The position numbers and the translations under genes are program-made. 32,000 nucleotides of DNA. Origin: Nonlabens ponticola. GTDB lineage: Bacteria > Bacteroidota > Bacteroidia > Flavobacteriales > Flavobacteriaceae. The stretch lies in NCBI RefSeq assembly GCF_003966335.1, contig NZ_CP034549.1:630001-662000 (forward strand), written 5' to 3'. The stretch's first letter is position 1. The number at the start of each line of letters is the position of its first letter. Positions 5,598-30,963 of the stretch are shown one piece after another. A model generated the notes under the pieces. The model did not search any database. It was not told the DNA's origin and saw only the letters and a program-made list of their open reading frames with translations.

Positions 5598-8207
5598 TTA
5601 AGGGGTTTGTTGCTGGTAGTCGTTTAGGCTCTTGTAAACCTGCACGATCTTATAATTATCGGTTGCAATAACGGTAAATTCTTGAGGTAGTGAAGATATG
5701 CGGTTAGGAGTTGCTAGATATTCTGCAAGCTCAGCAGCATTTTCTTTATCCTTAAAATTGTGAAGCACTACCAGACTTGTTTCTGCTGTATAGACATCAA
5801 TGGAAAAAGTGATGCCATTGCCTATGCTTTTAAATTCTTCTACCATCTTTACCGCAATGTCCTGACGCAAGTTGCTATCACCAGCTGGAATCTCAAAAAG
5901 AACCTTGAAATTTTCTAGCCTGTCCTCAGGTAAGAAAGTATCAGGAATACGTAAACGTTCTGCACTGGCAGATAGTTCCGCTGCTTTCTCTGCTTCTTCA
6001 GTTCCTGGGTAATTAAGGGCTATGAAATCTAGGCCTTCCTTATAAGCTTTTAAACCATACAATCTTCCAGAAGCGTACGTCTTGAGCAATTCTAGTTTTG
6101 GAACTATGGGATCGCCGCTGTAGCTTATAATTTTCTCATTGGCTTCTTCTATTACTTGTGCAAATTGCTCATTCTCATACTTTCTATACAAATCTGCATA
6201 CACACTTTCTGGACTACCAGTGCGATCCAGTTGTGTTTGTGGATTGAGCAGGATTTGTGCATATCGAGAATCAGGATATCTTGATATGATGGTGTTTTTG
6301 TATTGTTCCGCTTTCGCGAAAGCATAATCGCCACCAGCATTATCTACTCCTAACAGGTATAGGTTGTATAGAGTAGGTAAGTATAATTTTTGCTCTGGTT
6401 CAAAAGTAAGTAGCGTCTCAAATCGATCAATGGCTAGATCGCTGCGCTTGAATTTCTCCTTATATAAAACACCCAATTGATAGTAGGCAAAATCGCGAGC
6501 ATCTGCGATACTATCAAGCGCGACATCGCCTTGAGGCAACTGCTGCATATAATAGGATGCTAGATATTCTGGTGGTGTCTCGCTGCTGGATGCATCTGCA
6601 ATGTCGCTATCTTCATTCTCTTGCAATGCACTGCGCTGACTGTCCAGTCTCCAGTTTTCTTCCAGCGTGCGGTTGCCCCATCGACTACGGAATTCCAACT
6701 TACCTCTTGCCACGGTAGTAGGTACATAAAAATAGAACGAGCCTTGACCGCGTGATCCTATATCGTCAACAGTATTGGCTGGCGGCCCAAGATTGCGTCC
6801 ACCTGGCACATTTGCAGGAATGGTAGAAAGCGCCGTTTGCTGCTGCGCTAGGTTTGCTTCTTCAATCGCAGCCTGCTCTGCCAGCTGGCGATCACGTTCT
6901 TTAATGGTTTCAATATACTCATTATAGTAGGCTTCTCGCTCTATATCGCTCATGGCGAGAACTGCCAGTAGGCTATCAGCACTGCGGCGATTGGATTCGA
7001 ATAAAATGATATCTGATAGGTTATCGCGCTTTTTAGTCGTGGCACGTTTTTCTCGAGAGCGATCTGCATACAAGGCTACCGCGCTGTCATAATATCTGCC
7101 GGCTTGCTCAAATCTAGCCTGGTTAAAACTGATGGCGCCTAGCGCGCTATAATTATTTGCTCTTAAATAGCTATCGCGATTAGGCTCTCTCAATGATTGA
7201 TTATAGGCGACAACTGCGGCATCAACACTATCAATGCCTTCATAAAAAATGGCCTTGCGAGAATAGATTAAATCCAACCACGGTCTGTTCTCGCGATTTT
7301 GCTCTAGATCGTTGAGTAGATAGAATAATTGAGCGTCGCTCATTTCTAGCGTATCGCGCAACTTGATTTTTTCTATAAATGCCTGAACGTAATAATCACG
7401 TGGTATTTTACGGTGTAAATCGATCACCTCGTCAAAGTGTACAATAGCGCTATCTCGCATTCCAGCACGAGCAAAAAGTTGTCCTGTGATGAACTTGTAA
7501 CGACCTTCAGTAGCACGGTCTTTTGTTCTATCGGCAGCGCGGTTCATGTAGATGATGGCACTATCGATTTTATTGACGTTGAGATATGCTTGACCTAGCG
7601 TGGCGTTTGCTAGGATGAGATCTTCCTTATCAAACTCAATGCTGTCCTTGAGAGCGACGAGTTCTTGAAGATTCTCTATCGCTATCTCATTGTTGTCTAG
7701 GCGCATGTTGGTTTTTTCTCGCCAGATGCGAGCGCGTTTGCTCTTATCAGCGTCTGGCATGAATTGCAGCACATAGTTAAATGCCTCAATCGCCTCGACA
7801 TAACGCTGGTCATAATAGCGAGCCTTGCCCAACAACATGTAAGCCTCATCAATCTGCGGATTGCGCTCTTCACCATCAATAAGCATGGTGTGTTTTTGTA
7901 CGGCCTTTATGGCTTTTTCTTCTGCTCTTGCAAAATTTGGGTCGGATTCATCTGGATTGGCAATCTTGATTTCTTCACTGAAGGCAAGTGGTTCTACTGG
8001 AAGAATATCCCAGTAATTGTCGACGAAGTTGGTTCTTATGCCTTCCAGACCTTCTTGCAGGGCAAGATTACCGTTATAAAGTGTATTGAATTCTGTATTG
8101 ACAGCATGATAGTTACGAGAAAGGAAAGAATCGCTTTTACGGCTGCAACTCGCTAGGACGACTAGCGCGAGTAATAAAACGGTACTTATGGAAAAGAGGT
8201 GTTTCAA
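5598..8207 (-). CDS. large TPR-repeat lipoprotein; possibly a SprE/PorW-like gliding-motility/T9SS component (from memory, unverified)
   Basis: 869 aa with a lipoprotein signal (LLALVVLASC) and multiple TPR-like helices. Size and N-terminal FLSRNYHAVNTEFNTLYNG resemble what I recall of SprE. Contains palindrome copy 3, in frame. Confidence 0.8.
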   Translation of the reverse strand: MKHLFSISTVLLLALVVLASCSRKSDSFLSRNYHAVNTEFNTLYNGNLALQEGLEGIRTNFVDNYWDILPVEPLAFSEEIKIANPDESDPNFARAEEKAIKAVQKHTMLIDGEERNPQIDEAYMLLGKARYYDQRYVEAIEAFNYVLQFMPDADKSKRARIWREKTNMRLDNNEIAIENLQELVALKDSIEFDKEDLILANATLGQAYLNVNKIDSAIIYMNRAADRTKDRATEGRYKFITGQLFARAGMRDSAIVHFDEVIDLHRKIPRDYYVQAFIEKIKLRDTLEMSDAQLFYLLNDLEQNRENRPWLDLIYSRKAIFYEGIDSVDAAVVAYNQSLREPNRDSYLRANNYSALGAISFNQARFEQAGRYYDSAVALYADRSREKRATTKKRDNLSDIILFESNRRSADSLLAVLAMSDIEREAYYNEYIETIKERDRQLAEQAAIEEANLAQQQTALSTIPANVPGGRNLGPPANTVDDIGSRGQGSFYFYVPTTVARGKLEFRSRWGNRTLEENWRLDSQRSALQENEDSDIADASSSETPPEYLASYYMQQLPQGDVALDSIADARDFAYYQLGVLYKEKFKRSDLAIDRFETLLTFEPEQKLYLPTLYNLYLLGVDNAGGDYAFAKAEQYKNTIISRYPDSRYAQILLNPQTQLDRTGSPESVYADLYRKYENEQFAQVIEEANEKIISYSGDPIVPKLELLKTYASGRLYGLKAYKEGLDFIALNYPGTEEAEKAAELSASAERLRIPDTFLPEDRLENFKVLFEIPAGDSNLRQDIAVKMVEEFKSIGNGITFSIDVYTAETSLVVLHNFKDKENAAELAEYLATPNRISSLPQEFTVIATDNYKIVQVYKSLNDYQQQTP
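6306..6329. repeat. palindromic repeat copy 3 (exact core), inside the TPR lipoprotein CDS
   Basis: On the coding strand: gattat-GCTTTCGCGAAAGC-ggaac, which encodes DYAFAKAEQ. Confidence 0.9.
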
Positions 8208-8267
8208 AAAAGGCTGCTTTTACTAGCTATCATAACTATTCTCACGGCATGATATTGTAAGAACCCA

Positions 8268-8275
8268 CAAAAATA
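8268..8275 (-). promoter_or_regulatory. candidate -7 box (TAttTTTG) upstream of the TPR lipoprotein gene
   Basis: The reverse complement of caaaaata matches TAnnTTTG, 61 nt upstream of the ATG at 8207. Confidence 0.35.
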
Positions 8276-8329
8276 AGGAATATTCCCATAGACAATAATC
8301 CATGCAGATTGAACGCCTACCACGACAAA

Positions 8330-8563
8330 TTAATCAAGCCAATAAACGCGAGGTGAAAAGAAACTTTTTAATCCATGACGTTTGCCCGATTGATGCATCG
8401 CACTATAAGGATGAGGCGATAGTACAGCAGCAAGAATTAGAGGTAGGATGGTGGTCCATACATCAGGAGTAGAAACTACCTGCAGTCCAGCATATCTCGT
8501 GAGGAAAAATATAGCGGCAAAACATATAAAGTAAATAGTAAAAGCCTTGATTCGAGCGCTCAT
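8330..8563 (-). CDS. small 2-TM membrane protein, paralog B of a tandem pair
   Basis: 77 aa. 33/77 residues are identical in a gapless alignment with the upstream 77-aa ORF, and the two share the C-terminal motif SGKRxGLKSxFSPxxYWxD. Confidence 0.6.
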   Translation of the reverse strand: MSARIKAFTIYFICFAAIFFLTRYAGLQVVSTPDVWTTILPLILAAVLSPHPYSAMHQSGKRHGLKSFFSPRVYWLD

Positions 8564-8612
8564 TTTAAATAAGTCCTAATTAAAATCATGGATTGAACTT
8601 AAGTAAACAACA

Positions 8613-8846
8613 TCAATCAAACCAGTAGATCTTAGGCGAAAACAGGCTTTTGAGTCCATAACGTTTTCCCGAGACAGTTTCTTCAATATGCGGTTTAGGC
8701 GATACGATCATTGCCACGGCAATAGGAATAAAAGTTGTCCAGAAAGTAGGCTCAGTAAAGAATCCAACAGTGATATAATGGGTAATTACAAATACCCCAA
8801 GAAAACAAATAAGATAAACACCAAAGGTCTTGTATTTAGGTGCCAT
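8613..8846 (-). CDS. small 2-TM membrane protein, paralog A of a tandem pair; start overlaps the ABC ATPase stop
   Basis: 77 aa. On the coding strand a TAATG junction joins it to the upstream ABC ATPase, suggesting translational coupling. Confidence 0.65.
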   Translation of the reverse strand: MAPKYKTFGVYLICFLGVFVITHYITVGFFTEPTFWTTFIPIAVAMIVSPKPHIEETVSGKRYGLKSLFSPKIYWFD

Positions 8847-9586
8847 TATTCTTCCTCTTGTAATTGTGCAACTGGTGCGTGAGACTCGCTTATTCCCATG
8901 AAATACTGCTCTAATTGAGCAAATGTTCCTGCGTCCTTCATCATATCCATCACGACACGACCTTTTTCTAATAACACAACGCGCTGAGCAACCTCAGTCA
9001 CGTGGATCAGATCATGACTTGAGATAAAGACCGTTGTCTCACTATCTTCTGCTAGTTCCTTGATGATCTTCTTCAGTCTTATTTGTGTGGATGGATCCAG
9101 ATTAGCAAACGGCTCGTCGAGTATCACCACTTTAGGGCTACCTATAAGTGCGGCAATAATACCTACTTTTTTCTGGTTACCTTTTGATAGGTCACGCAGG
9201 TATTTTTTCTGACCTATGGCTTCACCGTTGAAAAACTCAAGGTGCTTTTCCATAAGGGCATCAATATCTGCTTTGTTTTGACCGCGCAGCTCGCCTATAA
9301 AGTAGAAATATTCTTCGGGCGTGAGATATCCTATGAGAAAACTCTCATCGACAAAAGCGCTGGTAAACGGTTTCCAGTCCTCACTTTCATCAACGCGCAC
9401 CTGGTTTGTAGTGATGTAACCGGTAGTAGGTTGTATCAAGTCTAGTAGCAATGAAAACAGCGTGGTTTTGCCAGCACCGTTATTTCCTACCAGACCTACC
9501 GCTTGTCCAGCTGGGATCTCTAGATGATCTATGTCCAACACTTTAGTGTCTGCGTATTGTTTTGAGAGGTTTGTTATTTCAATCAT
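8846..9586 (-). CDS. ABC transporter ATP-binding protein
   Basis: Walker A GNNGAGKTT, signature LSKGNQKKV, Walker B VVILDEP, H-loop SSHD. Confidence 0.95.
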   Translation of the reverse strand: MIEITNLSKQYADTKVLDIDHLEIPAGQAVGLVGNNGAGKTTLFSLLLDLIQPTTGYITTNQVRVDESEDWKPFTSAFVDESFLIGYLTPEEYFYFIGELRGQNKADIDALMEKHLEFFNGEAIGQKKYLRDLSKGNQKKVGIIAALIGSPKVVILDEPFANLDPSTQIRLKKIIKELAEDSETTVFISSHDLIHVTEVAQRVVLLEKGRVVMDMMKDAGTFAQLEQYFMGISESHAPVAQLQEEE

Positions 9587-9617
9587 GTCTTTAATATGTA
9601 GTGGTGATGGTATGGTT

Positions 9618-9642
9618 GTTACGCTTTCGCGAAAGCGGAATC
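9618..9642. repeat. palindromic repeat copy 4 (exact core)
   Basis: gttac-GCTTTCGCGAAAGC-ggaatc. Intergenic, between the permease-like gene and the ABC ATPase gene. Confidence 0.9.
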
Positions 9643-9660
9643 ATTAAAATCCAATTGCAA

Positions 9661-11130
9661 TTAATTAGTCTGCGAGTAAGCAGCAATAGTGTCGTATTTC
9701 TCGTTTTTATAAATGTTCTCGATAAGATCAAAAATCTTGTTGCGCAGTAGCAATCCTATGACACCAGTGGCCGCAACGGCAATGTAACCAGCATTATCGC
9801 TTATGGTAAAGGCAAAGGCTGCATAGACCGCAATGGGCACAAATAATTTGAGCATAGCAAGTAGGATGGTCTTGAAATTAAAAGCCTTAGAATCGCCAAA
9901 GGCTTTTTTGGCACTCTGCAAATCGATAGGCGTCTTTACAAACGCACCACCCAACAACACAAAACTACTGTTGAAGCCTATGTTGAAAATCGCAGCAGCA
10001 ATCATAGGCTTGAGCCACTCAATACCCACAAAACCGTAGGCCAGCGACAGGACGCTACAAATACAGGTGACTATCACCATCAAGTACCATTTGCTCAATA
10101 AAAAGGTGCGGTACGGTATATTTTGCGACATCATGAGCTTGTAGTAACTACTATCCCAACTAGGCACCAATCCACCAAAACTGAGCAAGAAACCGCCAGT
10201 CACAAATAGGCCAGCAAAAATTCTCATCGCCGGAATATCAGCATACATGGGCATCATGAAAAAGGCACCGTAAAACAAGAATAGGAATCCCATGATGAAG
10301 GTCATGCGCGCTCGCTTATTGCGTTTGATAAGGCGTATATCATTTTTAATAAAAGTGGACACACTACCAAAGCGGTCAAAAAACGTAAGATCATCAGTAC
10401 TTGCTGCCTTGACTTTTACCTCAAGACCAGCATCTAGATATAACTGTTTGATGAAATAATTGTAGGCAAGGTAGTAGAACAGCGCTGCCACCATTCCTGG
10501 AATAACAAACGACCACGGTTGCTCATAGAAGAATTCAAAAACGTGAACGGTGTATATGGTCACATCAAAAATCCCAAAATATTGCAACAATGCCAGCCCT
10601 ATAACCACAGCAACTACTGGATAGAAAACGCTATCCATTTTATTCATAAACACATTAAGGTAATTTAATGTGTAGGTTATACCAATGATCGCTAGATGCC
10701 AAGAGATAACGCCTATAGGGTCATAACCTTCAACCAACAGCACAATAGAATACGGTATAAAAAAGAACGCATGTAGAATATTGAAAAACGATATACTAGT
10801 TTTACCTAGCGCAAAATTCACGATCTGGCTGCGAGTGATAGGCAGGTACAACAGTGGTCTAATGTTGGCCACAGGCATTTTTTGCATACCATATCTTATG
10901 GCGAGATCAAACACAAAGTAATAAATCAAAAAACGGTTGAGTACGGTAAATGGATCTTGATCCGGCACTAATTTTTTAAGCCCGTAAAAAACACCAACAC
11001 CTAAACCAGTCATGACAAACAGCATGTAGACCGCACCTAGTCCCATAAATATCTTGAACGCGACATTTTGCTTAAAAGCCGCAGCTCTGGTAAAACTCTT
11101 CCACTCTAGACTGATGAACTGTTTGAACAT
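9661..11130 (-). CDS. polytopic membrane protein, probable permease partner of the adjacent ABC ATPase
   Basis: 489 aa with at least 10 hydrophobic segments. Co-directional with the ATPase gene and 74 nt upstream of it. Confidence 0.75.
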   Translation of the reverse strand: MFKQFISLEWKSFTRAAAFKQNVAFKIFMGLGAVYMLFVMTGLGVGVFYGLKKLVPDQDPFTVLNRFLIYYFVFDLAIRYGMQKMPVANIRPLLYLPITRSQIVNFALGKTSISFFNILHAFFFIPYSIVLLVEGYDPIGVISWHLAIIGITYTLNYLNVFMNKMDSVFYPVVAVVIGLALLQYFGIFDVTIYTVHVFEFFYEQPWSFVIPGMVAALFYYLAYNYFIKQLYLDAGLEVKVKAASTDDLTFFDRFGSVSTFIKNDIRLIKRNKRARMTFIMGFLFLFYGAFFMMPMYADIPAMRIFAGLFVTGGFLLSFGGLVPSWDSSYYKLMMSQNIPYRTFLLSKWYLMVIVTCICSVLSLAYGFVGIEWLKPMIAAAIFNIGFNSSFVLLGGAFVKTPIDLQSAKKAFGDSKAFNFKTILLAMLKLFVPIAVYAAFAFTISDNAGYIAVAATGVIGLLLRNKIFDLIENIYKNEKYDTIAAYSQTN

Positions 11131-11198
11131 AAAATAAAATGTTAATTACCCTATATGTGAAGATAAATGTAAAAACGTTACAACCATTTTACGTTTGT

Positions 11199-11206
11199 TA
11201 TTTTTG
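11199..11206 (+). promoter_or_regulatory. candidate -7 box (TAttTTTG) upstream of the ferredoxin reductase gene
   Basis: tatttttg lies 20 nt upstream of the ATG at 11226. Confidence 0.45.
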
Positions 11207-11225
11207 CTAGCCTAAAAAATACCAC

Positions 11226-12272
11226 ATGGTTTTCCACCAACTGTCCATAAAAGAAGTCACAAAAGTCACTTCACAAGCCGTTGAGATCGTCTTTGACGTG
11301 CCGCAGGATTTGAAAAGCGATTTTGAATATACCGCAGGCCAGTACTTGACCTTGAGAGCAGATATTGATGGCAATGACGTGAGACGTGCCTACTCATTGA
11401 GCAGCGCACCACATGAAGATCACTTGAGTGTTGTGGTAAAGGCTGTGCAGCATGGTACATTCTCAAACTATGCCATGAAACTGCGCGCTGGCGACACCCT
11501 TCAAGTCGCGCCACCAGATGGATTGTTTATTCACGAGAGCGATGCCAGTGCCGTCAATCACTATTTGAATGTTGCAGCAGGTAGCGGTATCACACCTATA
11601 ATGTCCATCATCAAGAGTATTCTTCATACTGAAAAAGACAGCCGAGTGGTATTAATTTATGGGAATCAGTCTCAATCGCAGACCATATATTTTGAGCAAT
11701 TGAACGATTTGCAAGACGCCCATCCAGATCGTTTCAAAGTGCGGTACAGTTTCTCTAGAGAAGAGCGTCAGGATGAGTTGTTCGGTCGTGTGAACAAGGC
11801 AAACCTCAATTATTTTTTGAAGAATGATTGTGAGGATTACGCTTTCGCGAAAGCTTACCTATGCGGTCCAGAAGCCATGATCAATATGGCAACAAACAAC
11901 CTTACCGAGAAAGAGGTCGTCGCCAAAGAAAACATCAAATTTGAACTCTTCACCGCTACAGAAAGTGAGGTAGAAATCACCGAAGATTCTCACTTGACGG
12001 AGGTAAAAGTCATCCTAGACGATGAAGAACACCAACTTACCATGCGTCGTGATGAGACCTTGCTTGAAGTGATGCTCAAAAACGATATCGATGCACCTTA
12101 TTCCTGCCAAGGAGGAATTTGTAGTAGCTGCGTAGGCTTGCTAGAGGAAGGAAAAGCCACCATGCGCAAAAATTCTATTCTCACTGACGAGGAAGTAGAT
12201 GAAGGCCTAACACTCACCTGCCAGGCTTGCCCAACTACCGCCAAGATTGTGGTTAATTTTGATGAGGTTTAA
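11226..12272 (+). CDS. ferredoxin-NAD(P) reductase fused to a plant-type 2Fe-2S ferredoxin domain (PaaE/PaaK-like oxidoreductase)
   Basis: FAD motif RAYSLSS, NAD(P) motif AAGSGITP, the CGP motif, and a C-terminal CQGGICSSC...C cluster. Contains palindrome copy 5, in frame. Confidence 0.9.
   Translation: MVFHQLSIKEVTKVTSQAVEIVFDVPQDLKSDFEYTAGQYLTLRADIDGNDVRRAYSLSSAPHEDHLSVVVKAVQHGTFSNYAMKLRAGDTLQVAPPDGLFIHESDASAVNHYLNVAAGSGITPIMSIIKSILHTEKDSRVVLIYGNQSQSQTIYFEQLNDLQDAHPDRFKVRYSFSREERQDELFGRVNKANLNYFLKNDCEDYAFAKAYLCGPEAMINMATNNLTEKEVVAKENIKFELFTATESEVEITEDSHLTEVKVILDDEEHQLTMRRDETLLEVMLKNDIDAPYSCQGGICSSCVGLLEEGKATMRKNSILTDEEVDEGLTLTCQACPTTAKIVVNFDEV
11834..11859. repeat. palindromic repeat copy 5 (GGATTAC + exact core), inside the ferredoxin reductase CDS
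   Basis: ggattac-GCTTTCGCGAAAGC-ttacc, which encodes (E)DYAFAKAYL immediately before the CGP motif. Confidence 0.9.
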
Positions 12273-13828: not shown

Positions 13829-14461
13829 GTGCGACCTATCATCGACCCTAATTTTGCAGTAGACACCTATTTCCCGATTGACTTATCTGTGCACAATCCC
13901 TATTGGGATCAGCATGATGTGAGTGATATCGAGACTTTTGAACATTATCTTGAAGAAAAGCGCAAGTATCACGACAAGTTTGTAGCGCATGGTGGCTTTA
14001 AGGAGCAAAGAGCATTATATCGCAAGTCTGCCAGATTTCAGGATGGTGCGGTGCGTGATATTCACATGGGTATTGATCTGTGGGCGCCAGCTGGCACCAG
14101 TGTGCATGCGCTCATGGATGGTATGATAAATTCTTTCGCAAATAATGACGATGCTGGGAACTATGGACCTACCTTGATTTTGGAACACGATTTTCAAGGA
14201 AAGAAGTTATACAGTCTTTACGGTCATCTTGCCGTTAGTGATATGCAGGACTGGTCTGTAGGATTACGCTTTCGCGAAAGCGAGATCATAGCACACCTAG
14301 GTACACCTCAAGAAAACGGTGGTTATTCACCGCACCTACACTTTCAAGTTATGACAGACATGCTGGATTATCGCGGCGATTTTCCAGGAGTTTTAGCTAA
14401 AGAGCAATTGGCTGAATTTGATAAAATCATTCTCGATCCCAATCCGTTTATATTTGGATGA
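13829..14461 (+). CDS. M23-family metallopeptidase (no obvious signal peptide)
   Basis: HxxxD-type GIDLWAPAGTSVHAL, YGHL, and SPHLHFQV motifs. GTG start. Contains palindrome copy 6, in frame. Confidence 0.85.
   Translation: MRPIIDPNFAVDTYFPIDLSVHNPYWDQHDVSDIETFEHYLEEKRKYHDKFVAHGGFKEQRALYRKSARFQDGAVRDIHMGIDLWAPAGTSVHALMDGMINSFANNDDAGNYGPTLILEHDFQGKKLYSLYGHLAVSDMQDWSVGLRFRESEIIAHLGTPQENGGYSPHLHFQVMTDMLDYRGDFPGVLAKEQLAEFDKIILDPNPFIFG
14261..14287. repeat. palindromic repeat copy 6 (GGATTAC + exact core), inside the M23 peptidase CDS
   Basis: ggattac-GCTTTCGCGAAAGC-gagatc, which encodes GLRFRESEI. Confidence 0.9.
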
Positions 14462-16546: not shown

Positions 16547-16605
16547 AAGCGTTCCTAGTCGTTGCCCAAGATCGCGAGCTTACTTGCGAGACTATTTAAT
16601 TCGTC

Positions 16606-16613
16606 TATTTTTG
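16606..16613 (+). promoter_or_regulatory. candidate -7 box (TAttTTTG) just upstream of the plsC ATG at 16620
   Basis: tatttttg ends 6 nt before the ATG, which would imply a leaderless or near-leaderless mRNA. The call is weak. Confidence 0.3.
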
Positions 16614-16619
16614 GCAGCT

Positions 16620-17360
16620 ATGAAATGGTTGCGATACGTCTTGATGCCTCTGTACAGGATATGGTTTTATATATTGCTTGCGGTTCCTATTATCGTGATG
16701 TTTCCGTTTTTATTATTGTCGGTCATTTCAGAAAAGACTTATTCTGCATTCTTTTTTATGGCGCGCATCTGGGCTGCAATCATATTGTACGGCATGGGAT
16801 TCTGGCCAGTTATAAAACGAGAGGCTGGAATGGAAAAAGGTAAGAGCTATATGCTAGTTGCCAATCACACCAGTATGGCAGATATTATGTTGATGTTACT
16901 CATTGCCAAAAATCCATTTGTGTTTGTAGGTAAATCTGAGCTGGCTAAAATTCCCGTATTCGGTTTTTTCTACAAGAGAACCTGTATATTGGTGGATCGC
17001 AAAAATCCGCGCAGTCGCCAGGCTGTCTTTGAACGTGCGAGCGAGAGACTTAACGACGGCGTAGGCATCTGCATTTTTCCTGAAGGTGGTGTTCCTGATG
17101 ATTTGAGCGTGCAGCTGGATAGTTTTAAGGACGGCGCTTTTAGGCTGGCCATTGAGCATCAAATACCGGTAGTGCCCATGAGTTTTTATGATAACAAGAA
17201 ACGATTTCCATACGTATTCTTCAAAGGCTCACCTGGAATCATGCGTGCAAGGACGTTACCTATTCAGGAAACTCGTGGCTTGCAATTGCCTGGTGATAAA
17301 GTTAGCTTTCGCGAAAGCGTAAGAACCATCATGCTCAACGATTTGCAAAAACATCAGTAA
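16620..17360 (+). CDS. plsC: 1-acyl-sn-glycerol-3-phosphate acyltransferase
   Basis: Acyltransferase motifs NHTSMADI (HX4D) and FPEGG. The ORF track starts at a TTG at 16584; I prefer the ATG at 16620 (MKWLRYV...), but the start is uncertain. Contains palindrome copy 7, in frame. Confidence 0.85.
   Translation: MKWLRYVLMPLYRIWFYILLAVPIIVMFPFLLLSVISEKTYSAFFFMARIWAAIILYGMGFWPVIKREAGMEKGKSYMLVANHTSMADIMLMLLIAKNPFVFVGKSELAKIPVFGFFYKRTCILVDRKNPRSRQAVFERASERLNDGVGICIFPEGGVPDDLSVQLDSFKDGAFRLAIEHQIPVVPMSFYDNKKRFPYVFFKGSPGIMRARTLPIQETRGLQLPGDKVSFRESVRTIMLNDLQKHQ
17301..17322. repeat. palindromic repeat copy 7 (exact core + GTAA), inside the plsC CDS
   Basis: gtta-GCTTTCGCGAAAGC-gtaa, which encodes VSFRESV(R). 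Confidence 0.9.
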
Positions 17361-21237: not shown

Positions 21238-21251
21238 GCTTTCGCGGAAGC
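21238..21251. repeat. palindromic repeat copy 8 (13/14, GCTTTCGCGgAAGC)
   Basis: Intergenic, in the recA/trhO divergent region. One mismatch breaks the palindrome. Confidence 0.6.
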
Positions 21252-21276: not shown

Positions 21277-21391
21277 AGGGCGTTTCCTCTAGCATATCGC
21301 TGTCGCTCAAGGCTAGAGGTCAGGCTATCCGTTACAATCTATTGTCACGCTTGTGGCGTGGCAACAGGATTTTCACTGCTATCCTTAACGC
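21277..21391. other. ~115-nt structured intergenic element with two hairpins and a repeated GCTATCC box; candidate small RNA or REP-like element
   Basis: Hairpin A pairs CCTCTAGC (21286..21293) with GCTAGAGG (21312..21319). Hairpin B pairs TTGTCACGC (21342..21350) with GCGTGGCAA (21356..21364, one G-U). GCTATCC occurs at 21324 and 21378, after each hairpin. It resembles intergenic elements I recall from other Flavobacteriia; this is unverified. Confidence 0.4.
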
Positions 21392-21453
21392 AAATAGATT
21401 GTGCCTACTATCTGACTACTAGCAGCGCAGCGGTCAAATATCTATAATCTAAC

Positions 21454-21461
21454 TACCTTTG
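21454..21461 (+). promoter_or_regulatory. candidate -7 box (TAccTTTG) upstream of trhO
   Basis: tacctttg lies 28 nt upstream of the ATG at 21489. Confidence 0.5.
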
Positions 21462-21488
21462 CACTATCAACATTTAACTGTTTATAGC

Positions 21489-22523
21489 ATGCAACTGTAT
21501 AACAAATTAAGTGCTGAAGAGAGAAGACAATTGATACGTGAGGCTGGTAAGCAGCGGCTCACGATCTCTTTCTATCAGTATGCCTTTATTATTGATCCAC
21601 AATTATTTAGAAACTATCTGTTTGTAGACTTTAATGCTCTTGATGTCTTGGGACGTATTTATGTCGCTCATGAAGGTATCAACGCCCAATTTTCTATTCC
21701 GGCAGATCGTTTTAAGGAGCTCAAAAAATTTCTAGATGGCATCGACTTTCTAGAAAACGTGCGATTAAATATCGCTCGAGAACATGACGATGAGAGTTTC
21801 TTGAAGCTGAAAGTCAAGGTGCGCCATAAGATTGTTGCCGATGGACTTGAAGACGACTCCTTTGACGTGACTAATAAAGGCGTTCATGTAGATGCCGCTA
21901 GATTCAATGAGCTGATTGATGATCCTGATACGGTGCTGGTTGATATGCGCAATCATTATGAGAGCGAGATAGGTCATTTTCAAAATGCGTGGACGCCTGA
22001 TGTGGACACCTTTCGCGAAAGCTTACCCATCATCGAGGAAGAAATAAAAGACCACAAAAAGGATAAGAAACTGGTAATGTATTGTACCGGCGGCATACGT
22101 TGTGAGAAAGCAAGTGCCTATTACAAGCATCGCGGTTTTGAGGATGTTTACCAGCTAGAAGGTGGTATCATCGAGTATCACAGACAGGTAACTGAGCAAG
22201 GATTGGAGAATAAATTTAGAGGTAAAAATTTTGTTTTTGACGCGCGATTATCTGAAAAGATAAGCGATGAGATCATCTCTAACTGCCATCAATGTGGCGA
22301 GCCTTGTGACACGCACACAAATTGTGATAATGAGGGCTGTCATTTACTTTTCATACAATGTGAGAATTGCCGGAAAGCATTTAAAAATACCTGTAGCACT
22401 CATTGTTTAGAGGTAATACAGTTATCAGCTGAGGAGCAAAAGCAACTGCGAGCAGGTAAGCCTGCGAAAAATAAAAAGTTTAAAAAAGGGCGCTCGTCAA
22501 AACTGGAATTTAAAAAACAATAG
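21489..22523 (+). CDS. trhO: rhodanese-domain tRNA uridine(34) hydroxylase (YceA/UPF0176 family)
   Basis: ISFYQY...GRIYVAHEGINAQFSIP, rhodanese active site CTGGIRCEKAS, and a C-terminal Cys-rich HQCGEPCD..C. I prefer the ATG at 21489 over the track's TTG at 21459, which overlaps a TAnnTTTG box. Contains palindrome copy 9. Confidence 0.9.
   Translation: MQLYNKLSAEERRQLIREAGKQRLTISFYQYAFIIDPQLFRNYLFVDFNALDVLGRIYVAHEGINAQFSIPADRFKELKKFLDGIDFLENVRLNIAREHDDESFLKLKVKVRHKIVADGLEDDSFDVTNKGVHVDAARFNELIDDPDTVLVDMRNHYESEIGHFQNAWTPDVDTFRESLPIIEEEIKDHKKDKKLVMYCTGGIRCEKASAYYKHRGFEDVYQLEGGIIEYHRQVTEQGLENKFRGKNFVFDARLSEKISDEIISNCHQCGEPCDTHTNCDNEGCHLLFIQCENCRKAFKNTCSTHCLEVIQLSAEEQKQLRAGKPAKNKKFKKGRSSKLEFKKQ
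22009..22027. repeat. palindromic repeat copy 9 (13/14 core + TTACC), inside the trhO CDS
   Basis: cCTTTCGCGAAAGC-ttacc, which encodes TFRESLP. Its 18 nt CTTTCGCGAAAGCTTACC are identical to copy 5. Confidence 0.7.
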
Positions 22524-24496: not shown

Positions 24497-24511
24497 GGAT
24501 AGGATTTCTCA

Positions 24512-25071: not shown

Positions 25072-25090
25072 TTTTTAGAAGCACTAATCG

Positions 25091-25098: not shown

Positions 25099-25117
25099 GG
25101 TCTCAATTTTATCTTTT

Positions 25118-26575
25118 TTGAGTTCCATCAACCGCCTTTTTAAACACACTTTTGTATACGGTCTGGCGACTGTTTTGCCACGATTGTTGACGGTGCTGCT
25201 CACAAGGCTGCTGACTGAATATTTACCCAGCAAGACCGCTTTTGGCGAGGTTTCCATTATCTTTTCATGGATCATTTTATTCAACGTGATCTTGACTTAT
25301 GGTATGGAGACTTCTTTTTTCCGCTTTTTCAGCGAAAGCGAGAATAAAAACAAGGTCCTAACCACAGGACTGGTTTCTTTGCTGGGTACCACCATCGCAT
25401 TTGTTGTGATTGCCTTTTTAGGTCTGGACTATATTGAGGCCTGGTCTAGCAAATCAGCCGATTATTGGCGTTGGGTCATAGGAATACTGGCTTTTGATAC
25501 CATGATGGTGATTCCGTTTGCTTATATGCGGGCGCAAGGAAAGAGTCTCAAGTATGCTGTGATCAAGATGATCAATGTAGTCATTTCAGTTGGTATGACT
25601 GCTGTATTTTTGATCTGGTTGAGCGATCTACCTACTATAAATCAGTTCTTACCAGAAGATAAAGTGGAGTTATACTTCATCGCATTGATGACCGCCAGTT
25701 TTATTACTTTGTTTCTTGTAGGTGGCATTTATCTTAGAAAATGGGAATTTGATTCAGTATTATGGAAACGAATGCTGCGCTATGGCTTTCCTATTTTGAT
25801 CGCAGGTCTGGCGTTTGCTGTAAATGAGACTTTCGATAAGATCTTACTAGAATGGCTGTTGGTAGATGACGCCACAGCGCAAACCGGTGTTTATTCGGCT
25901 TGTTATCGTGTGGCCGTTGGAATGACCTTGTTTGCCACCGCTTTTAAACTAGGTGTCGAGCCTTTCTTTTTCAGTGAGTCCAAAAGCAAAGACGCCGTTG
26001 AAACCTATGCCAAAATCACTAAAATGTTTGTGATACTAGGATCAGTCGCACTGATTACCTACACGATTTTCATAGATCTGATCAAGAGATTAATTATTGA
26101 TGAAGAATACTGGGAAGCATTAGATATCGTGCCAGTCATTTTGATTGCCTACTTCTTTTTTGGCATCTATCAAACCTTATCGGTATGGTATAAGGTGACT
26201 GATCGCACCAGTTTTGGTGCTTGGATCTCAGTTTTAGGTGCTGCGATTACCATAGGTCTCAATATTTGGCTTATTCCAGTGATAGGATATATGGCAAGTG
26301 CGCTTACCACATGTGCCGCTTACGGTTTAATGATGCTGGTATCCTATTTATTGGGCAGAAAGTATTACCGCATCCCTTACGAGGTAGGCAGTTTATCGCT
26401 GTACCTGTTTCTTTCTATTGCTGCGACCATGCTGTTTTTCTACACCATTCGTGAGAGTCTAGGTGCAGATACCTGGCAAATGTATGCGGCAGGAATTGCC
26501 CTAGCCTTGCTTGTTTCAACCTTCATCTTGTATAAAGAACGACTGTTTATCAAATCATTATTTGCAAAATCATGA
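25118..26575 (+). CDS. polysaccharide/oligosaccharide flippase (Wzx/MOP superfamily)
   Basis: 485 aa with about 12-14 TM helices and an N-terminus ([17 protein letters not shown]) typical of flavobacterial flippase-family proteins. TTG start. Confidence 0.8.
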
Positions 26576-27006
26576 CTATAAAAATCATCAACAAATCTGG
26601 ACATGAGCTACCTGCTTATGAAACTGTAGGAAGCGCTGGTATGGATATACGCGCATCGATAACAGAATGCATTGTTCTTGAACCTCTAGAAAGAGCCATT
26701 GTAAAAACAGGTTTGTTTATCGAGTTACCCGTAGGTTATGAGGCACAAGTGCGACCTCGCAGTGGTCTCGCTGCCAAAAAAGGTATCACAGTCCTCAACT
26801 CACCAGGAACCATAGATGCCGATTATCGCGGCGAGATAGGCGTGATTTTGGTCAATCTTTCAAATCAGAATTTCCCTATAGAAAACGGCGAGCGCATCGC
26901 ACAATTGGTAATCGCACATCATGAGCAACCACAATGGCAAGAGGTTGAGGTTTTGAGCGATACAGATCGCGGTGCAGGTGGTTTTGGGAGTACTGGAAAC
27001 AAGTAG
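26572..27006 (+). CDS. dut: dUTP diphosphatase
   Basis: 144 aa with motifs [25 protein letters not shown], and C-terminal [14 protein letters not shown] overlap with the flippase gene. Confidence 0.95.
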
Positions 27007-27036
27007 AAGATCCTTATATTGTATTCAGTCCGTTTT

Positions 27037-27061
27037 GGATTACGCTTTCGCGAAAGCGTAA
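27037..27061. repeat. palindromic repeat copy 10 (22-bp perfect palindrome TTACGCTTTCGCGAAAGCGTAA, preceded by GGA)
   Basis: Intergenic, between dut and the TPR gene. This is the most complete copy in the window. Confidence 0.95.
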
Positions 27062-27085
27062 CATCATAAAAACTGCTCAAAAAAT

Positions 27086-28009
27086 ATGAAGACAAATTTC
27101 CTGACCATTTTCACCATTGTCTGTGCCATATTGGTTGCAGAAGCTCAAGAAAGCTCTATAAAATCACAAGCCGAAGAGGCCTGTGAGTGTATCAAATTAA
27201 TTGACCGTAATGAGGAAAAACTAGAGCAAAACAAACAGGTTGAGGCATGTATAAATGATGCAATTATGGCCGATCAGCTGCTAAGCAAATTAGGAAGTGC
27301 ATTAGAAAAAGCAAATGATAGCACAAATACGGACAAAGAGATCAATATCACCATCAATTCTGATGAAGGATATGAAAAGATTGAGCGCAAATTAATTGAT
27401 AACTGTGTCGCTTTAAATATTCTTCTCAACGATGCTAAACCTACTAGTCAGAATTCTTTTTCTGAAAATAAAAAGGCGATTGAATTTTATCGCCAAGGTT
27501 ATGAAGCCTACAATTCTGGAGATTTAGAGAAAGCAGTAGAACTATATGGTAAAGCCGTTGAGACAGACAAAAAATTTGCCTTTGCTTGGGACATGTTAGG
27601 CATAGCTCATAGAAGGCTGGACAATTATGATGATGCAATTGCTGCCTACAAGAAATCATTGAAAATTGACCCCAAAGGAAAAATGCCATTACAAAATCTG
27701 CCTATTGCTTATAGATTGAATGATGACGTAAAAAATGCTATCAAAACTTATGAAAAACTCATTAAGCACTATCCTGAAGATCCAGAAGGATATTTTGGCC
27801 TAGCTCAATGTGGACTAATGACAAAAAACTATGAGTTAGCGGCTGATAATATTTTTCCCGCTTACAAAATGTATGCTGAGGTAAATTCTCCCTATAAACA
27901 GGATGCAGAAATTGTTTTAAGTGAGGTATACCAAGGCATGAAAGCAAATGACAATCTAGATAAGTTTAGAAAAATCGCCAAAAAACATGATATTACCCTA
28001 GAAGAGTAA
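27086..28009 (+). CDS. secreted TPR-repeat protein
   Basis: 307 aa with a signal peptide. TPR helices (AIEFYRQGYEAYNSGDLEKAVELYGKAVETD..., AIAAYKKSLKIDP). Confidence 0.75.
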   Translation: MKTNFLTIFTIVCAILVAEAQESSIKSQAEEACECIKLIDRNEEKLEQNKQVEACINDAIMADQLLSKLGSALEKANDSTNTDKEINITINSDEGYEKIERKLIDNCVALNILLNDAKPTSQNSFSENKKAIEFYRQGYEAYNSGDLEKAVELYGKAVETDKKFAFAWDMLGIAHRRLDNYDDAIAAYKKSLKIDPKGKMPLQNLPIAYRLNDDVKNAIKTYEKLIKHYPEDPEGYFGLAQCGLMTKNYELAADNIFPAYKMYAEVNSPYKQDAEIVLSEVYQGMKANDNLDKFRKIAKKHDITLEE

Positions 28010-28015
28010 TGGCCT

Positions 28016-28471
28016 GTGACATTTAATTTACAAATGCGACCTCAGGCGCTCATCGTTTTAGTGTTATGGACGCTATCTAGTTGCCGCCATAATAGACACG
28101 ATGTTGATATTTCAGGTTGCTATAAATCGGTAAAAGGCGATCCAGTTGCATGGTGGCAAAGCGAAGAGATCGATGGTATTGCCATAGGACCTCATTTGAA
28201 TCTTATGCCAGACAGCACCTTTATCTATGAGACTTGCGGTACTACTTTTCAAGGTCACTGGACACAGGACGATAAAAATCTATTTCTTTATCAAACAAGC
28301 TATCACATCAGGTGGAGAGATTCCAGCCTAACAGATCAGCAACATATCAAACTTATGAGTGATGAATTCTTTGAATTTGACATAGTAGACGGAAGATTGG
28401 TTGCCATTTTTAAAAACGAGCGCTCTAAGAAAAGATCTCGATTGACATTAGAAAAAATCACTGGCAGTTGA
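28016..28471 (+). CDS. hypothetical lipoprotein/secreted protein
   Basis: 151 aa, GTG start, hydrophobic N-terminus followed by SSC. Confidence 0.45.
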   Translation: MTFNLQMRPQALIVLVLWTLSSCRHNRHDVDISGCYKSVKGDPVAWWQSEEIDGIAIGPHLNLMPDSTFIYETCGTTFQGHWTQDDKNLFLYQTSYHIRWRDSSLTDQQHIKLMSDEFFEFDIVDGRLVAIFKNERSKKRSRLTLEKITGS

Positions 28472-28576
28472 TTTGTTCTTGTTTCTATTCTTAAATAGAA
28501 CAAGCATAAGCTTCCAAATTTTTACCTTCGCTCAATTACTAACAACAAACAGCTTTCCGCCAGAGCGGAAATTATT

Positions 28577-29593
28577 ATGAAAATAATCGTTCCCATGGCC
28601 GGTCGCGGCTCTAGACTTAGACCACACTCACTTACAACGCCCAAACCTCTTATTCCTATTGCAAACAAACCTATCGTGCATCGATTGGTGACTGACATTG
28701 CCAGAATATTGAACGAGCCTATCACAGAGATAGCTTTTATTCTGGGCGATCCAGCCTTTTTTGGCGATCAGGTGGTAAAAAGCCTTGAAGAGCTAGCCAA
28801 AGGTTTGGGCGCTAAAGCTAGCATCTATAGACAACTACAACCATTGGGTACAGGACATGCCATCATGTGTGCAGAACCATCACTTGACGGTCCAGCTGTG
28901 GTAGCTTATGCGGATACCTTGATAAGAGCAGACTTTGAGCTTGATCCAGCAGCAGACGCCGTTATCTGGACAAAACAAGTAGATCAACCTGAAGCTTATG
29001 GTGTGGTAAAACTTAACGATAAGCATGAGATCACAGAACTTGTTGAGAAACCTCAAGAATTTGTGAGCGATCAAGCAGTTATCGGGATTTATTACTTCAA
29101 ACAAATTTCAAATCTCAAAAAACAGTTACAACATGTGATTGACAATAACATCATACATGGTGGTGAGTACCAGATCAACGATGGTATTAAGGGCATGATG
29201 AAAGCTGGCAACATTTTCAAGACTGGAACCGTTGATGAATGGATGGATTGCGGTAACAAGAATGTTGCGATAGATACCAACACTCGCATCATGAAATTCA
29301 TGGAGCAGGATGGCAGCGATGAGCTGGATACCACCGCAACCCTAGAAAATTCTAAAATTATCCAGCCGTGCGTAATTGCTGATAATGTGATTTTAAGAAA
29401 TAGTACAATAGGTCCTCATGTGAGCATAGGCGCTGGCAGTGTGATAGAAAACTGTACGATCAAGGATAGCCTCATACAAACCAACAGTCATATAAAAAAC
29501 GCCCAACTAGACCAAGCCATGATAGGCAATCACGTCAAATACGATGGTGATTTCACACACATCAGTATAGGTGATTACACCACGATGGAATAA
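28577..29593 (+). CDS. sugar-phosphate nucleotidyltransferase with a C-terminal left-handed beta-helix domain
   Basis: N-terminal PMAGRGSRLRP...KPL signature of NTP-transferases, plus C-terminal hexapeptide-like repeats. Confidence 0.85.
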   Translation: MKIIVPMAGRGSRLRPHSLTTPKPLIPIANKPIVHRLVTDIARILNEPITEIAFILGDPAFFGDQVVKSLEELAKGLGAKASIYRQLQPLGTGHAIMCAEPSLDGPAVVAYADTLIRADFELDPAADAVIWTKQVDQPEAYGVVKLNDKHEITELVEKPQEFVSDQAVIGIYYFKQISNLKKQLQHVIDNNIIHGGEYQINDGIKGMMKAGNIFKTGTVDEWMDCGNKNVAIDTNTRIMKFMEQDGSDELDTTATLENSKIIQPCVIADNVILRNSTIGPHVSIGAGSVIENCTIKDSLIQTNSHIKNAQLDQAMIGNHVKYDGDFTHISIGDYTTME

Positions 29594-29613
29594 TAATTGA
29601 ACAGACCAACCAC

Positions 29614-30963
29614 ATGAAAATCCAGCTCGTATTTTTTGCCATGTTTTTCTGCCTGATGGTTTCGGCGCAGGAAGATGTGACGCTGGAAGATGTAAATGTG
29701 GACGATCTGGGTATCGTCAATGATGCCTTTAAGGAAAACTTCTTTGATGCTTTATCAGAAAAGGCACGCGGCAACCATGATCGAGCCATTGAGAAATTGC
29801 TGAAATGCGAGAAATTAGAGCCTGAATCTGGCGCGGTGCAATTAGAACTTGCAAAGAATTATATGGCTAGTAACGCTTTCGCGAAAGCGGAATCACACCT
29901 ACTTAAAACCATACAATTATCAGGAGAACGAGAGTGGATCCTCGATACCTTACTCGAGAATTATGAAAGCCAGAAGCAATATGATAAGGCACTCAGTACA
30001 TTAAAAAAGCTGATTGACATCAACGACTCTTATAGAGAATTACTGCCTATCGCATATTTAAAAGTGGAAGATGAGTCTAGCGCATTGCAAGCACTCGATG
30101 CGCTAGATCGCGATTTAGGCCCTAGCGATAAGCGCAACAGATTGAGGAGAACATTACAAAAAACTACCGCGACCACAGGTTCACAACCTGTAATAGATCT
30201 TGAAGAGCGACTTAGCTCTAATCCAAAAAATTCAGACCTATATGCGCAATTAATGTACGCTTACAGCCAGACCCAGGACGAGGAAAAAATGTTGAGCGTT
30301 GCAGCGAGATGGCGTCAAAATATTCCTAGTGATGACCAGCCGTATCTAGCACTTTATAAAATCTACCTCAATCGTGGTGATATAGAAAAAGGGTTATCAA
30401 GTCTGGTAAGAGTGCTCAAGTCCTCACAATTAGATGATCAAGTTAAATCGCAAGTAATTACCGATTATTTGAATGCTATTGAATCGCGCCCAGAACTGGC
30501 CTCTCAAGTGGATGAGATCATGAAGATTTATGAAAGTCAGATTGAAGACACACAAGCTTTTATTGCATTAGGCAATTTTTATAAAGAAAAGAATCAATTG
30601 AATCGTGCCGTACGTTTTTACCAAATGGCATTAGATCAAGATGATCAGGATTTTGATTTGATTAAAATAACATCGCTGTTGTACCTGGACCTGGGAAAAT
30701 TTGATGATGCGGCGACCATCAGCGAACAAGCGTTGGAAATCTATCCAGCACAATCATTGTTGTACTTAATCAATGGTGCTGCTCTAAATCAGCTGCAAGA
30801 ATATAAGAAGGCAATAACAGTGCTGGAAACTGGGTTATCATTTTTACTGGATGAGCCGCAACTGGAAAAAGATATTTATGAGCAGCTGTTGCTGTCCTAT
30901 GAAAAACTAGGCGACAATAAAAAAGCTGCATCATTGCGTGAAACACTGCGCGACTTGAATTAG
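29614..30963 (+). CDS. secreted TPR-repeat protein
   Basis: 449 aa with a signal peptide and many TPR-like helices. Contains palindrome copy 11, in frame. Confidence 0.75.
   Translation: MKIQLVFFAMFFCLMVSAQEDVTLEDVNVDDLGIVNDAFKENFFDALSEKARGNHDRAIEKLLKCEKLEPESGAVQLELAKNYMASNAFAKAESHLLKTIQLSGEREWILDTLLENYESQKQYDKALSTLKKLIDINDSYRELLPIAYLKVEDESSALQALDALDRDLGPSDKRNRLRRTLQKTTATTGSQPVIDLEERLSSNPKNSDLYAQLMYAYSQTQDEEKMLSVAARWRQNIPSDDQPYLALYKIYLNRGDIEKGLSSLVRVLKSSQLDDQVKSQVITDYLNAIESRPELASQVDEIMKIYESQIEDTQAFIALGNFYKEKNQLNRAVRFYQMALDQDDQDFDLIKITSLLYLDLGKFDDAATISEQALEIYPAQSLLYLINGAALNQLQEYKKAITVLETGLSFLLDEPQLEKDIYEQLLLSYEKLGDNKKAASLRETLRDLN
29870..29894. repeat. palindromic repeat copy 11 (exact core), inside the TPR protein CDS
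   Basis: gtaac-GCTTTCGCGAAAGC-ggaatc, which encodes SNAFAKAES. 23 nt are identical to intergenic copy 4. Confidence 0.9.

Follow-up and report, generated by a model that had tools for sequence, protein, structure and literature searches.

The window considered here is a 32,000-nucleotide (32-kb) stretch of the chromosome of the flavobacterium Nonlabens ponticola (contig NZ_CP034549.1, positions 630,001 to 662,000), and it is ordinary core chromosome, carrying the ATP synthase operon, dprA, trpS, plsC, recA, trhO, and dut. Throughout this stretch the 14-bp perfect palindrome GCTTTCGCGAAAGC recurs, with 11 matches (nine exact and two with one mismatch, numbered in Table 1) where none is expected from 100 shuffles; six of them lie within long open reading frames (ORFs) and five in short spacers. 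The core is usually extended to CGCTTTCGCGAAAGCG, giving 14–16 bp, or ~22 bp with the arms, and the half-site consensus is (T/G)T(A/T)C-GCTTTCG, which with its flanks takes the form GGATTAC-GCTTTCGCGAAAGC-GTAATCC in N. ponticola. We hold with high confidence that this is a motif built by substitution and maintained at the DNA level, comparable to the uptake signal sequences (USS) and DNA uptake sequences (DUS) of other bacteria and to the highly iterated palindrome HIP1 of cyanobacteria. Its favored interpretation, to which we assign a probability of about 0.35, is that of a signal for uptake or recombination linked to natural transformation. Statements about whole genomes are based on a sample of tiles totaling ~1.1 Mb and on six syntenic loci.

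Formation of the copies by substitution

Alignment of the PlsC, M23 peptidase, ferredoxin-reductase-like, TrhO, and second tetratricopeptide repeat (TPR) proteins with orthologs that do not carry the motif has revealed no indel at any of the five sites. In PlsC, KVSFRESVRT is aligned with KSTLREEVRE and KKAIRDKVWE; the M23 peptidase has RFRESE against ATVKEGQ, the reductase AFAKAY against NFGAYY, the TPR protein AFAKAE against EYTSAY, and TrhO TFRES against TFRDS. The preliminary description of this DNA had raised the alternative of insertion or overlay, and all five coding sites compared turned out to be overlays. At the codon level, the near-copy in trhO reads ACC TTT CGC GAA AGC where relatives have ACC TTT AGA GAT AGT, and it was gained as AGR became CGC and AGT became AGC, both synonymously. 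Synonymous changes have also removed a copy, since in strain 105-3Z the reductase gene retains an intact AFAKA encoded as GCT TTT GCA AAA GCA and the motif is gone, the same site being exact in N. marinus and Hel1_33_55. Insertion, on the model of Rickettsia palindromic elements (RPE) or miniature inverted-repeat transposable elements, is ruled out by these collinear alignments and by the absence of conserved sequence past about ±7 bp.

The palindrome can be read as AFAKA, RFRES, or LSRK, and in motif-bearing genomes the exact core encodes at least 90% of the AFAKA and RFRES peptides, while all three peptides are 30–60 times commoner than in other Flavobacteriaceae or in reversed-order controls; hence it is the DNA motif that makes the peptides and not the reverse. 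Selection on AFAKA or FRES as a protein motif is ruled out, as at least 90% of them use the exact core out of at least 64 synonymous encodings and the peptides are nearly absent elsewhere. The host annotations given earlier, which described functionally unrelated proteins, were confirmed for all six coding copies: a TPR protein with a lipobox (LASC), an FAD/NAD/2Fe-2S reductase, an M23 peptidase, an acyltransferase, a UPF0176/rhodanese protein (TrhO), and a second TPR protein. The palindrome is a real feature of the DNA, and one that sets the protein sequence of unrelated hosts. Mapping onto the AlphaFold model of PlsC (mean predicted local distance difference test score 76) places SFRES at residues 229–233, within a confidently predicted C-terminal helix spanning residues 225–244, and the TPR consensus leads one to expect a helix at the AFAKA sites of the TPR proteins as well.

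Read codon by codon, copies 3, 5, and 11 give GCT TTC GCG AAA GCN (AFAKA) and copies 6, 7, and 9 give NGC TTT CGC GAA AGC (FRES), in full agreement with the preliminary description. That all six stand in frame, as it stated, is true and at the same time uninformative, as an overlay leaves the number of bases unchanged; no long ORF is interrupted by any of the 11 copies in the window. Its further claim that only two of the three frames are used does not extend beyond the window. For a census of frames in Dokdonia and Nonlabens, tiles had been selected through one perfect arm, and the copies counted were those whose tile would be fetched without them (n = 120). In this corrected census 57 copies are non-coding (~47%) and 63 lie inside long ORFs (53%), the latter being distributed over the AFAKA, RFRES, and LSRK frames as 43:11:9 (chi-square p = 3e-8), and not equally. 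LSRK accounts for 14% of the coding copies, and 26 LSRK peptides in the tiles come from the exact core; its absence among six copies, which had itself been called non-significant, is a small-sample effect. The observed shares of 68:17:14 compare with 66:12:22 predicted by the product of amino-acid frequencies (p = 0.19), and the frame bias is therefore one of tolerance of the encoded peptide (AFAKA > RFRES > LSRK), fully accounted for by composition without any rule.

The arms have a story of their own. In the AFAKA frame a perfect right arm would supply TAA, and window copies 3, 5, and 11 carry GCG GAA, GCT TAC, and GCG GAA instead, exactly as first described. Across the census the codon after AFAKA is GAA, CAA, AAA, TAT, or TAC in 25 of 43 cases (58%), against a baseline of 19% for one-step neighbors of TAA (p = 2e-8). 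Since this codon is mostly one step from TAA, the arms too are under DNA-level pressure toward the consensus, within the limits of the genetic code; copies read as RFRES or LSRK often keep their arms as well, in the form of L-RFRES-V and IT-LSRK-RN. An in-frame TAA never occurs in an intact ORF except as the genuine stop codon (AFAKA*), and in a few genes of the tiles (L001–L120) the TAA of a palindrome arm is the actual stop codon, so that the motif spans the end of the gene. The earlier notion of “edited” arms holds for the codons themselves and for the pull toward TAA neighbors. It does not hold for any event after arrival, because the copies were built in place by substitution in every ortholog comparison, and the avoidance of TAA is obligatory, a matter of survivorship.

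Table 1. Copies of the palindrome in the 32-kb window, with two further sequence features of the same stretch (positions within the window).
Feature	Position	Strand	Match	Context
Copy 1	2097..2110	none	exact core	non-coding, 16 bp past atpH stop codon, 60 bp ahead of atpA start
Copy 2	4773..4786	none	exact core, left arm GGATTAC	non-coding, 8 bp past DUF6168 gene stop, upstream of atpB
Copy 3	6310..6323	-	exact core	TPR lipoprotein gene (ORF 5598-8207, minus strand), phase 0, DYAFAKAEQ
Copy 4	9623..9636	none	exact core	74-bp spacer between DUF5687 gene and ABC ATPase gene
Copy 5	11841..11854	+	exact core	ferredoxin-reductase-like gene (ORF 11226-12272), phase 0, DYAFAKAYL
Copy 6	14268..14281	+	exact core	M23 peptidase gene (ORF 13829-14461), phase 1, LRFRESEI
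Copy 7	17305..17318	+	exact core	PlsC-like acyltransferase gene (ORF 16584-17360), phase 1, SFRESVR
Copy 8	21238..21251	none	one mismatch (GCTTTCGCGGAAGC)	non-coding, 90 bp upstream of recA, beside Flavo-1 RNA
Copy 9	22009..22022	+	one mismatch (CCTTTCGCGAAAGC)	inside trhO (ORF 21459-22523), phase 1, TFRESLP
Copy 10	27044..27057	none	exact core, both arms near-perfect (GGATTAC...GTAAC)	non-coding, 37 bp past dUTPase stop codon
Copy 11	29875..29888	+	exact core	second TPR gene (ORF 29614-30963), phase 0, SNAFAKAES
Flavo-1 RNA (Rfam RF01705)	21314-21399	-	51.8 bits (gathering score 42)	divergent recA/trhO spacer
Second 14-mer GATCAAGATGATCA	3090-3103	+	exact	atpF
Second 14-mer GATCAAGATGATCA	25561-25574	+	exact	polysaccharide-synthesis gene
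Second 14-mer GATCAAGATGATCA	30634-30647	+	exact	second TPR gene

Two of these entries are observations in their own right. The degenerate copy 8 lies between the Flavo-1 RNA and the start of recA, an arrangement that is repeated in four other Nonlabens species. The second 14-mer, which contains the inverted repeat GATCA-AGA-TGATC, sits in three unrelated genes of the window and in none of all the other loci, including those of other Nonlabens, and it may be a species-specific second iterated motif.

Conservation, spacing, and taxonomic range

Syntenic loci were compared from N. marinus, Hel1_33_55, 105-3Z, N. dokdonensis, the N. tegetincola group, and two metagenome-assembled genomes (MAGs); the orthologous-site comparisons are those within Nonlabens, and Nonlabens against Dokdonia gave one weak match, in the reductase gene. 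At orthologous sites the core is 97% identical, compared with 53% in the 45-bp flanks, and spacer copies persist in flanks of ~33% identity. N. marinus and Hel1_33_55 carry exact versions of copies 4, 5, 6, and 7 at the orthologous sites. Copy 4 is kept in the orthologous spacer of 105-3Z as well, with flank identity of just 33–56% among the three, and the 105-3Z site of copy 6 is the ATVKEGQ sequence already mentioned, free of indels. Copy 7 is found in every Nonlabens locus examined (L121, L137, L141, L201, L202, L205, L206, and L248) and in 55 of 120 best homologs. Copy 8 has an orthologous site in four other Nonlabens, exact in Hel1_33_55 and with a single mismatch, each time a different one, in the other three. 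The N. tegetincola group retains copy 10 behind dut, the arms there being different, and copy 11 is exact, including its GCG GAA arm, in an N. tegetincola ortholog with just 40% protein identity. Copy 9 is missing in orthologs, where AGA/AGG and AGT codons encode the same peptide; it sits on an ancestrally conserved TFRES/TFRDS peptide and is a nascent copy or a chance near-copy, not an old one.

Between aligned tile pairs, 10 of 13 comparisons were conserved, a figure that is biased by ascertainment. Relatives also hold copies missing from the window, in polysaccharide-synthesis and tetrapyrrole-methylase genes, showing that sites are both gained and lost. Overall, ~270 exact copies stand against 27 with one mismatch and 16 with two, and a CpG-transition signature, as left by decay of methyl-cytosine, was looked for in the decayed copies and not seen (4 of 27). 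The arms vary by species: position -1 is C in 72–100% of half-sites, and at position -2 N. ponticola and Dokdonia have A, N. marinus and Hel1_33_55 T, even at orthologous copies (Fisher p = 0.005–0.015). Such differences are species “dialects,” with concerted evolution of the outer arms within a species.

In the same loci, copies are kept ~40 nt past the start codon of Porph_ging-family genes (L205 15860, L248 18512, L249 19284) and ~123 nt into a 260-aa gene next to the deoxynucleoside kinase gene (L203 11716, L205 12739, L248 11713, L249 15836), both being conserved across five diverged genomes. In one of these loci the deoxynucleoside kinase gene itself is apparently split into two 111-residue ORFs (L248 10971-11587), which could reflect a frameshift, a pseudogene, or an assembly error. 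The N. marinus locus (L201 13419-13781) carries a 23S_rRNA_IVP (four-helix-bundle) gene between two CoA-transferase subunit genes that are adjacent in the window.

With respect to distribution, non-coding DNA is 7.2-fold enriched per bp, and spacer copies lie a median of 23 bp past a stop codon. Tandem, convergent, and divergent spacers contain them about as often as the bp they offer would suggest, most copies being between same-strand genes. The density is ~1 per 3 kb in the window and ~1 per 9 kb in the tiles. Copies are more evenly spaced than random, with a regularity of ~3 kb: the coefficient of variation of the gaps is 0.37–0.41 in the window and 0.15–0.37 in five other loci (P about 0.003–0.08; a limited sample of loci of 21–32 kb, partly orthologous), and among tiles with two copies 11 pairs are less than 2 kb apart where 25 are expected and 30 pairs are 2–4 kb apart where 18 are expected (chi-square p = 0.0025).

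A scan for TTACGCTTTCGCGAAAGC over one genome per species (185,579 species) returned at least 120 tiles, nearly all from Dokdonia, Nonlabens, or uncultured Flavobacteriaceae MAGs, and among the matches listed two single-copy tiles bore other labels, one that of an uncultured Polaribacter bin and the other that of Muricauda sp. TY007. No core was found in 892 kb of other Flavobacteriaceae, fetched via tryptophanyl-tRNA synthetase at 70–75% identity, once four motif-bearing contigs had been set aside, which probably belong to the Nonlabens/Dokdonia clade. Among the matches listed, the motif thus appears to be confined to this clade of Flavobacteriaceae. A family-wide phenomenon with other dialect palindromes is excluded by 60 Flavobacteriaceae loci of 9–21 kb, in which no comparable repeat occurs. 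Two repeats of other kinds were met along the way: a dense cluster of ~64-bp and ~160-bp repeats with GAGCGCAGCCGAAG in an uncultured Flavobacteriaceae MAG (L062, about 2300-3600), unrelated to the palindrome, and a different short repeat, GAGACCTTTGCAAAAT, found four times in 21 kb of a non-Nonlabens flavobacterium (L154, WLWD01000010.1). A literature search returned no paper with the 14-mer and none tying Dokdonia, Nonlabens, or Flavobacteria to an iterated palindrome, and this clade-specific highly iterated palindrome is apparently undescribed so far, belonging with USS, DUS, and HIP1 and not to a separate category.

The palindrome as the probable unit of recognition

Information around the copies is limited to the core and about 4–7 bp per side, with no larger element around it, and 90% of the GCGAAAGC half-sites lie inside full cores. 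Lone half-sites are rare (~10%), which rules out the half-site as the unit, either as a GCGAAAGC mini-hairpin or as a DUS-like 8–11-mer forming dyads. The two arms of a copy covary no more than column composition alone would give. A fold of -15.5 kcal/mol is predicted for the consensus 28-mer, and real copies fold at -3.4 to -9.4 kcal/mol (z = -0.1 to -1.7) and the core alone at -1.9 kcal/mol, neither any better than shuffles. Moreover, no T-run or U-tract follows the intergenic window copies, and an Rfam search gave no family match besides the unrelated Flavo-1 RNA. A hairpin, terminator, or structured RNA is ruled out by the lack of covariation, the weak folding, the absence of an Rfam family and of U-tracts, and the location of about half of the copies inside genes. 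With the palindrome as the unit, and neither the half-site nor a hairpin, it is most likely read as a duplex by a lineage-specific homodimeric protein to which the half-sites would contribute independently. The 3′ half GCGAAAGC is identical to a known ultra-stable DNA mini-hairpin, d(GCGAAAGC), that excludes single-stranded DNA-binding protein (PMC13037366), an identity to be taken as a lead only.

The same results bear on the idea of a miniature mobile or hairpin element, be it one like the repetitive extragenic palindromic sequences (REP) or REPINs moved by a REP-associated tyrosine transposase (RAYT), an RPE-like in-frame inserter, or an RNA hairpin acting as terminator or mRNA stabilizer. 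The fold of the consensus 28-mer, the mini-hairpin sequence of the 3′ half (PMC13037366), and the REP-like position of about half of the copies, in spacers shortly past stop codons and mostly of same-strand genes, would suit such an element, and short palindromic repeats in hundreds of scattered copies are indeed what REPs, with the bacterial interspersed mosaic elements (BIME) that they form, and RPEs have in common with the present motif, REPs following genes in operons and RPEs standing in frame in unrelated proteins. However, both spread as inserted blocks, whereas the Nonlabens/Dokdonia motif adds no DNA, and where RPEs add 30–50 residues its copies add none. REPs are extragenic imperfect hairpins, often paired, unlike the present copies, which are solitary and spaced, neither paired nor clustered. 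No RAYT gene is present among the genes of the window. The lack of an indel at any site compared with a motif-free ortholog largely refutes a mobile origin for the coding copies, and given also the intragenic half of the copies, the arms without compensatory covariation, the shuffle-like folding, the missing U-tracts, the absence of an Rfam match and of conserved sequence outside the immediate arms, this explanation is very improbable.

The copies could also be binding sites of a lineage-specific dimeric chromosomal protein, serving nucleoid organization, condensin loading, as topoisomerase sites, or the like, with each copy under purifying selection. Such a protein would be in keeping with the full palindrome as the unit and its independent half-sites, the strong positional conservation within and between ORFs, the over-dispersed ~3 kb spacing, and the co-evolution of the arms, and the same conclusion was reached for HIP1 by Xu et al. 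(PMC5861425). On the other hand, a protein with several hundred targets in a genome of 3 Mb needs far less than the ~28 bits or more of exact sequence present here; genuine operators vary from site to site, in contrast to the 10:1 ratio of exact to one-mismatch copies; and where sites number in the hundreds, any single one should be only very weakly selected. The motif is also present at host density in a transposable prophage, described below, and no candidate protein was identified. We regard chromosomal-protein sites as a doubtful, if serious, alternative.

Phages and the proposed relation to uptake sequences

The 16-mer is present in multiple copies on ~17 IMG/VR contigs of 36–47% GC. One of them, IMGVR_UViG_3300040781_000495 (L226, L243, L246), is a Mu-like temperate myovirus in which 28 kb contain six copies, several lying in structural genes and including the portal/terminase region; its genes include those for portal, terminase, protease, capsid, sheath, baseplate, a MuB-like AAA_22 protein, and DUF3164, and its terminase is closest to a Winogradskyella phage terminase. 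In the lytic Nonlabens phage P12024S (L247, 35.7 kb) no copy was found with up to two mismatches allowed. Chromosome-resident DNA acquires the motif and virulent phage does not, the latter being represented by one virulent phage.

Presence in resident prophage DNA is among the features that would fit a drive linked to repair or methylation, without any role in uptake, in which for example an orphan methyltransferase acting on TCGCGA or CGCG, coupled to repair of the very-short-patch or methyl-directed type, would convert near-matches to the consensus inside the cell. The center of the palindrome, TCGCGA, is the NruI recognition site. Origin by substitution, including synonymous multi-step changes, and an extremely sharp consensus would follow from such an enzyme pair, whose specificity the arm dialects could track, and Elhai has tied HIP sequences to orphan methyltransferases and methyl-directed repair (PMC4390886). 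Yet known methyltransferase and very-short-patch specificities span 4–8 bp and not 14–22 bp, the CpG-transition signature is absent from decayed copies (4/27), and neither the even spacing nor the 7-fold non-coding excess beyond tolerance is predicted. The lytic phage moreover replicates in Nonlabens without any copy, and biased repair was rejected for HIP1 by Xu et al. (PMC5861425). A drive of this kind is unlikely.

A further reading is that of a marker of “self” resembling Chi, which would protect resident DNA from a host nuclease or steer recombinational repair independently of uptake. Chi occurs in E. coli at a density close to 1 per 3–9 kb, near to that of the palindrome, which is lineage-specific with dialects and is present on both chromosome and prophage. 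Known Chi sites, however, are asymmetric 5–8-mers, polar with respect to replication and without enrichment in spacers, unlike a 14–16 bp palindrome with a 7-fold non-coding excess, and the lytic phage, which would gain from mimicry, has none (n = 1). Although such a marker is one of two mechanisms proposed for HIP1 (bioRxiv 10.1101/2024.09.10.611283), we consider it improbable here.

Closest in character are the USS of Pasteurellaceae (Haemophilus) and the DUS of Neisseriaceae (Neisseria). Mutation and recombination give rise to these sequences, which are spaced evenly, occur less often in genes than expected, show a frame bias, and enrich the peptides they encode (PMC2817400); DUS are highly conserved in permissive regions, with a spacing that matches conversion tracts (PMC2397512). 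The palindrome follows the list of USS/DUS properties point for point, in being hyper-abundant, lineage-specific, sharp in consensus, and built by substitution, in its under-representation in genes, frame bias, peptide enrichment, and even spacing, and in having sites conserved in permissive regions, species dialects, and intergenic copies just past genes. The one clear mismatch is palindromy. HIP1 (GCGATCGC) supplies this property, being a perfect palindrome, hugely over-represented and overlaid on genes and spacers alike, with conserved orthologous positions and with lineage variants and extensions (PMC4390886, PMC5861425), the conservation holding within and between ORFs (PMC5861425). Its sequence is unrelated, however, its 8–10 bp compare with a core of 14–16 bp, and the Nonlabens/Dokdonia motif is about 10-fold sparser; periodicity has been reported for HIP1 at 10–90 kb, whereas the present regularity is at ~3 kb. 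HIP1 has further been tied to orphan methyltransferases, whereas no cognate methyltransferase is known for the flavobacterial motif, and the two belong to different phyla, HIP1 to cyanobacteria and the palindrome to Flavobacteriaceae (Bacteroidota), the latter phylum also differing from that of USS and DUS.

HIP1 has been reported to raise natural transformation in a way that depends on methylation (bioRxiv 10.1101/2024.09.10.611283), and a role as an uptake sequence was put forward for it (bioRxiv 10.64898/2026.06.24.733823). Within Flavobacteriales, natural competence is found in Riemerella, with R. columbina showing a preference for self DNA (PMC7965970). It is the match with USS/DUS properties, taken together with these HIP1 reports and with self-DNA preference in the same order, that leads us to favor a transformation-linked signal. 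Point substitutions create the copies in place, in spacers and on top of codons, and the exact core is then retained for very long periods as DNA and protein around it change. On the favored account, natural transformation would preferentially take up and/or recombine motif-bearing DNA, driving near-matches to the consensus and spacing the copies at about one per recombining fragment. More specific, and tentative, is the proposal that in Nonlabens and Dokdonia a dimeric receptor reads a palindrome of 14–16 bp as a signal for DNA uptake or recombination.

Several points weigh against a transformation-linked signal. USS and DUS are asymmetric 9–12-mers that act singly, and dyad symmetry there means two separate copies, whereas here a 14–16 bp perfect palindrome is the unit, one palindrome and not two copies. 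Their density of 0.8–0.9 per kb is 3–10 times that of the Nonlabens/Dokdonia motif. A temperate phage at host-level motif density is unexpected for DUS, which are rare in recently acquired DNA, and in this the motif is unlike USS/DUS. Uptake bias and competence are part of the USS/DUS systems, and what is known of the palindrome comes from DNA sequence, on the basis of ~1.1 Mb of tiles and six syntenic loci and not of complete genomes. Even spacing could instead come from selection against deletions between close repeats, and the sites could be conserved because each one is selected for a role in the chromosome, which is the argument made for HIP1 (PMC5861425).

Whatever its function, the palindrome is a clean natural example of a DNA-level force that overrides protein sequence, raising AFAKA and RFRES 30–60-fold and keeping 14 bases fixed within proteins that are otherwise 40% identical. 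It can also be put to practical use in taxonomy and binning, as a marker of Nonlabens/Dokdonia contigs and prophages, and its length and species-specific arms make the protein that reads it findable by pull-down or phylogenetic profiling, which is hard for the 8-bp HIP1. Should the motif work in the manner of USS/DUS or HIP1, it would offer a 16-bp handle for genetic tractability, to be added to donor DNA. If the reading as an uptake signal is true, this would be the first uptake-sequence system in Bacteroidota and, with HIP1, the second independent case of highly iterated palindromes acting as transformation signals; natural transformation would then be frequent in abundant marine flavobacteria, and the Nonlabens/Dokdonia clade would consist of habitual exchangers of conspecific DNA.

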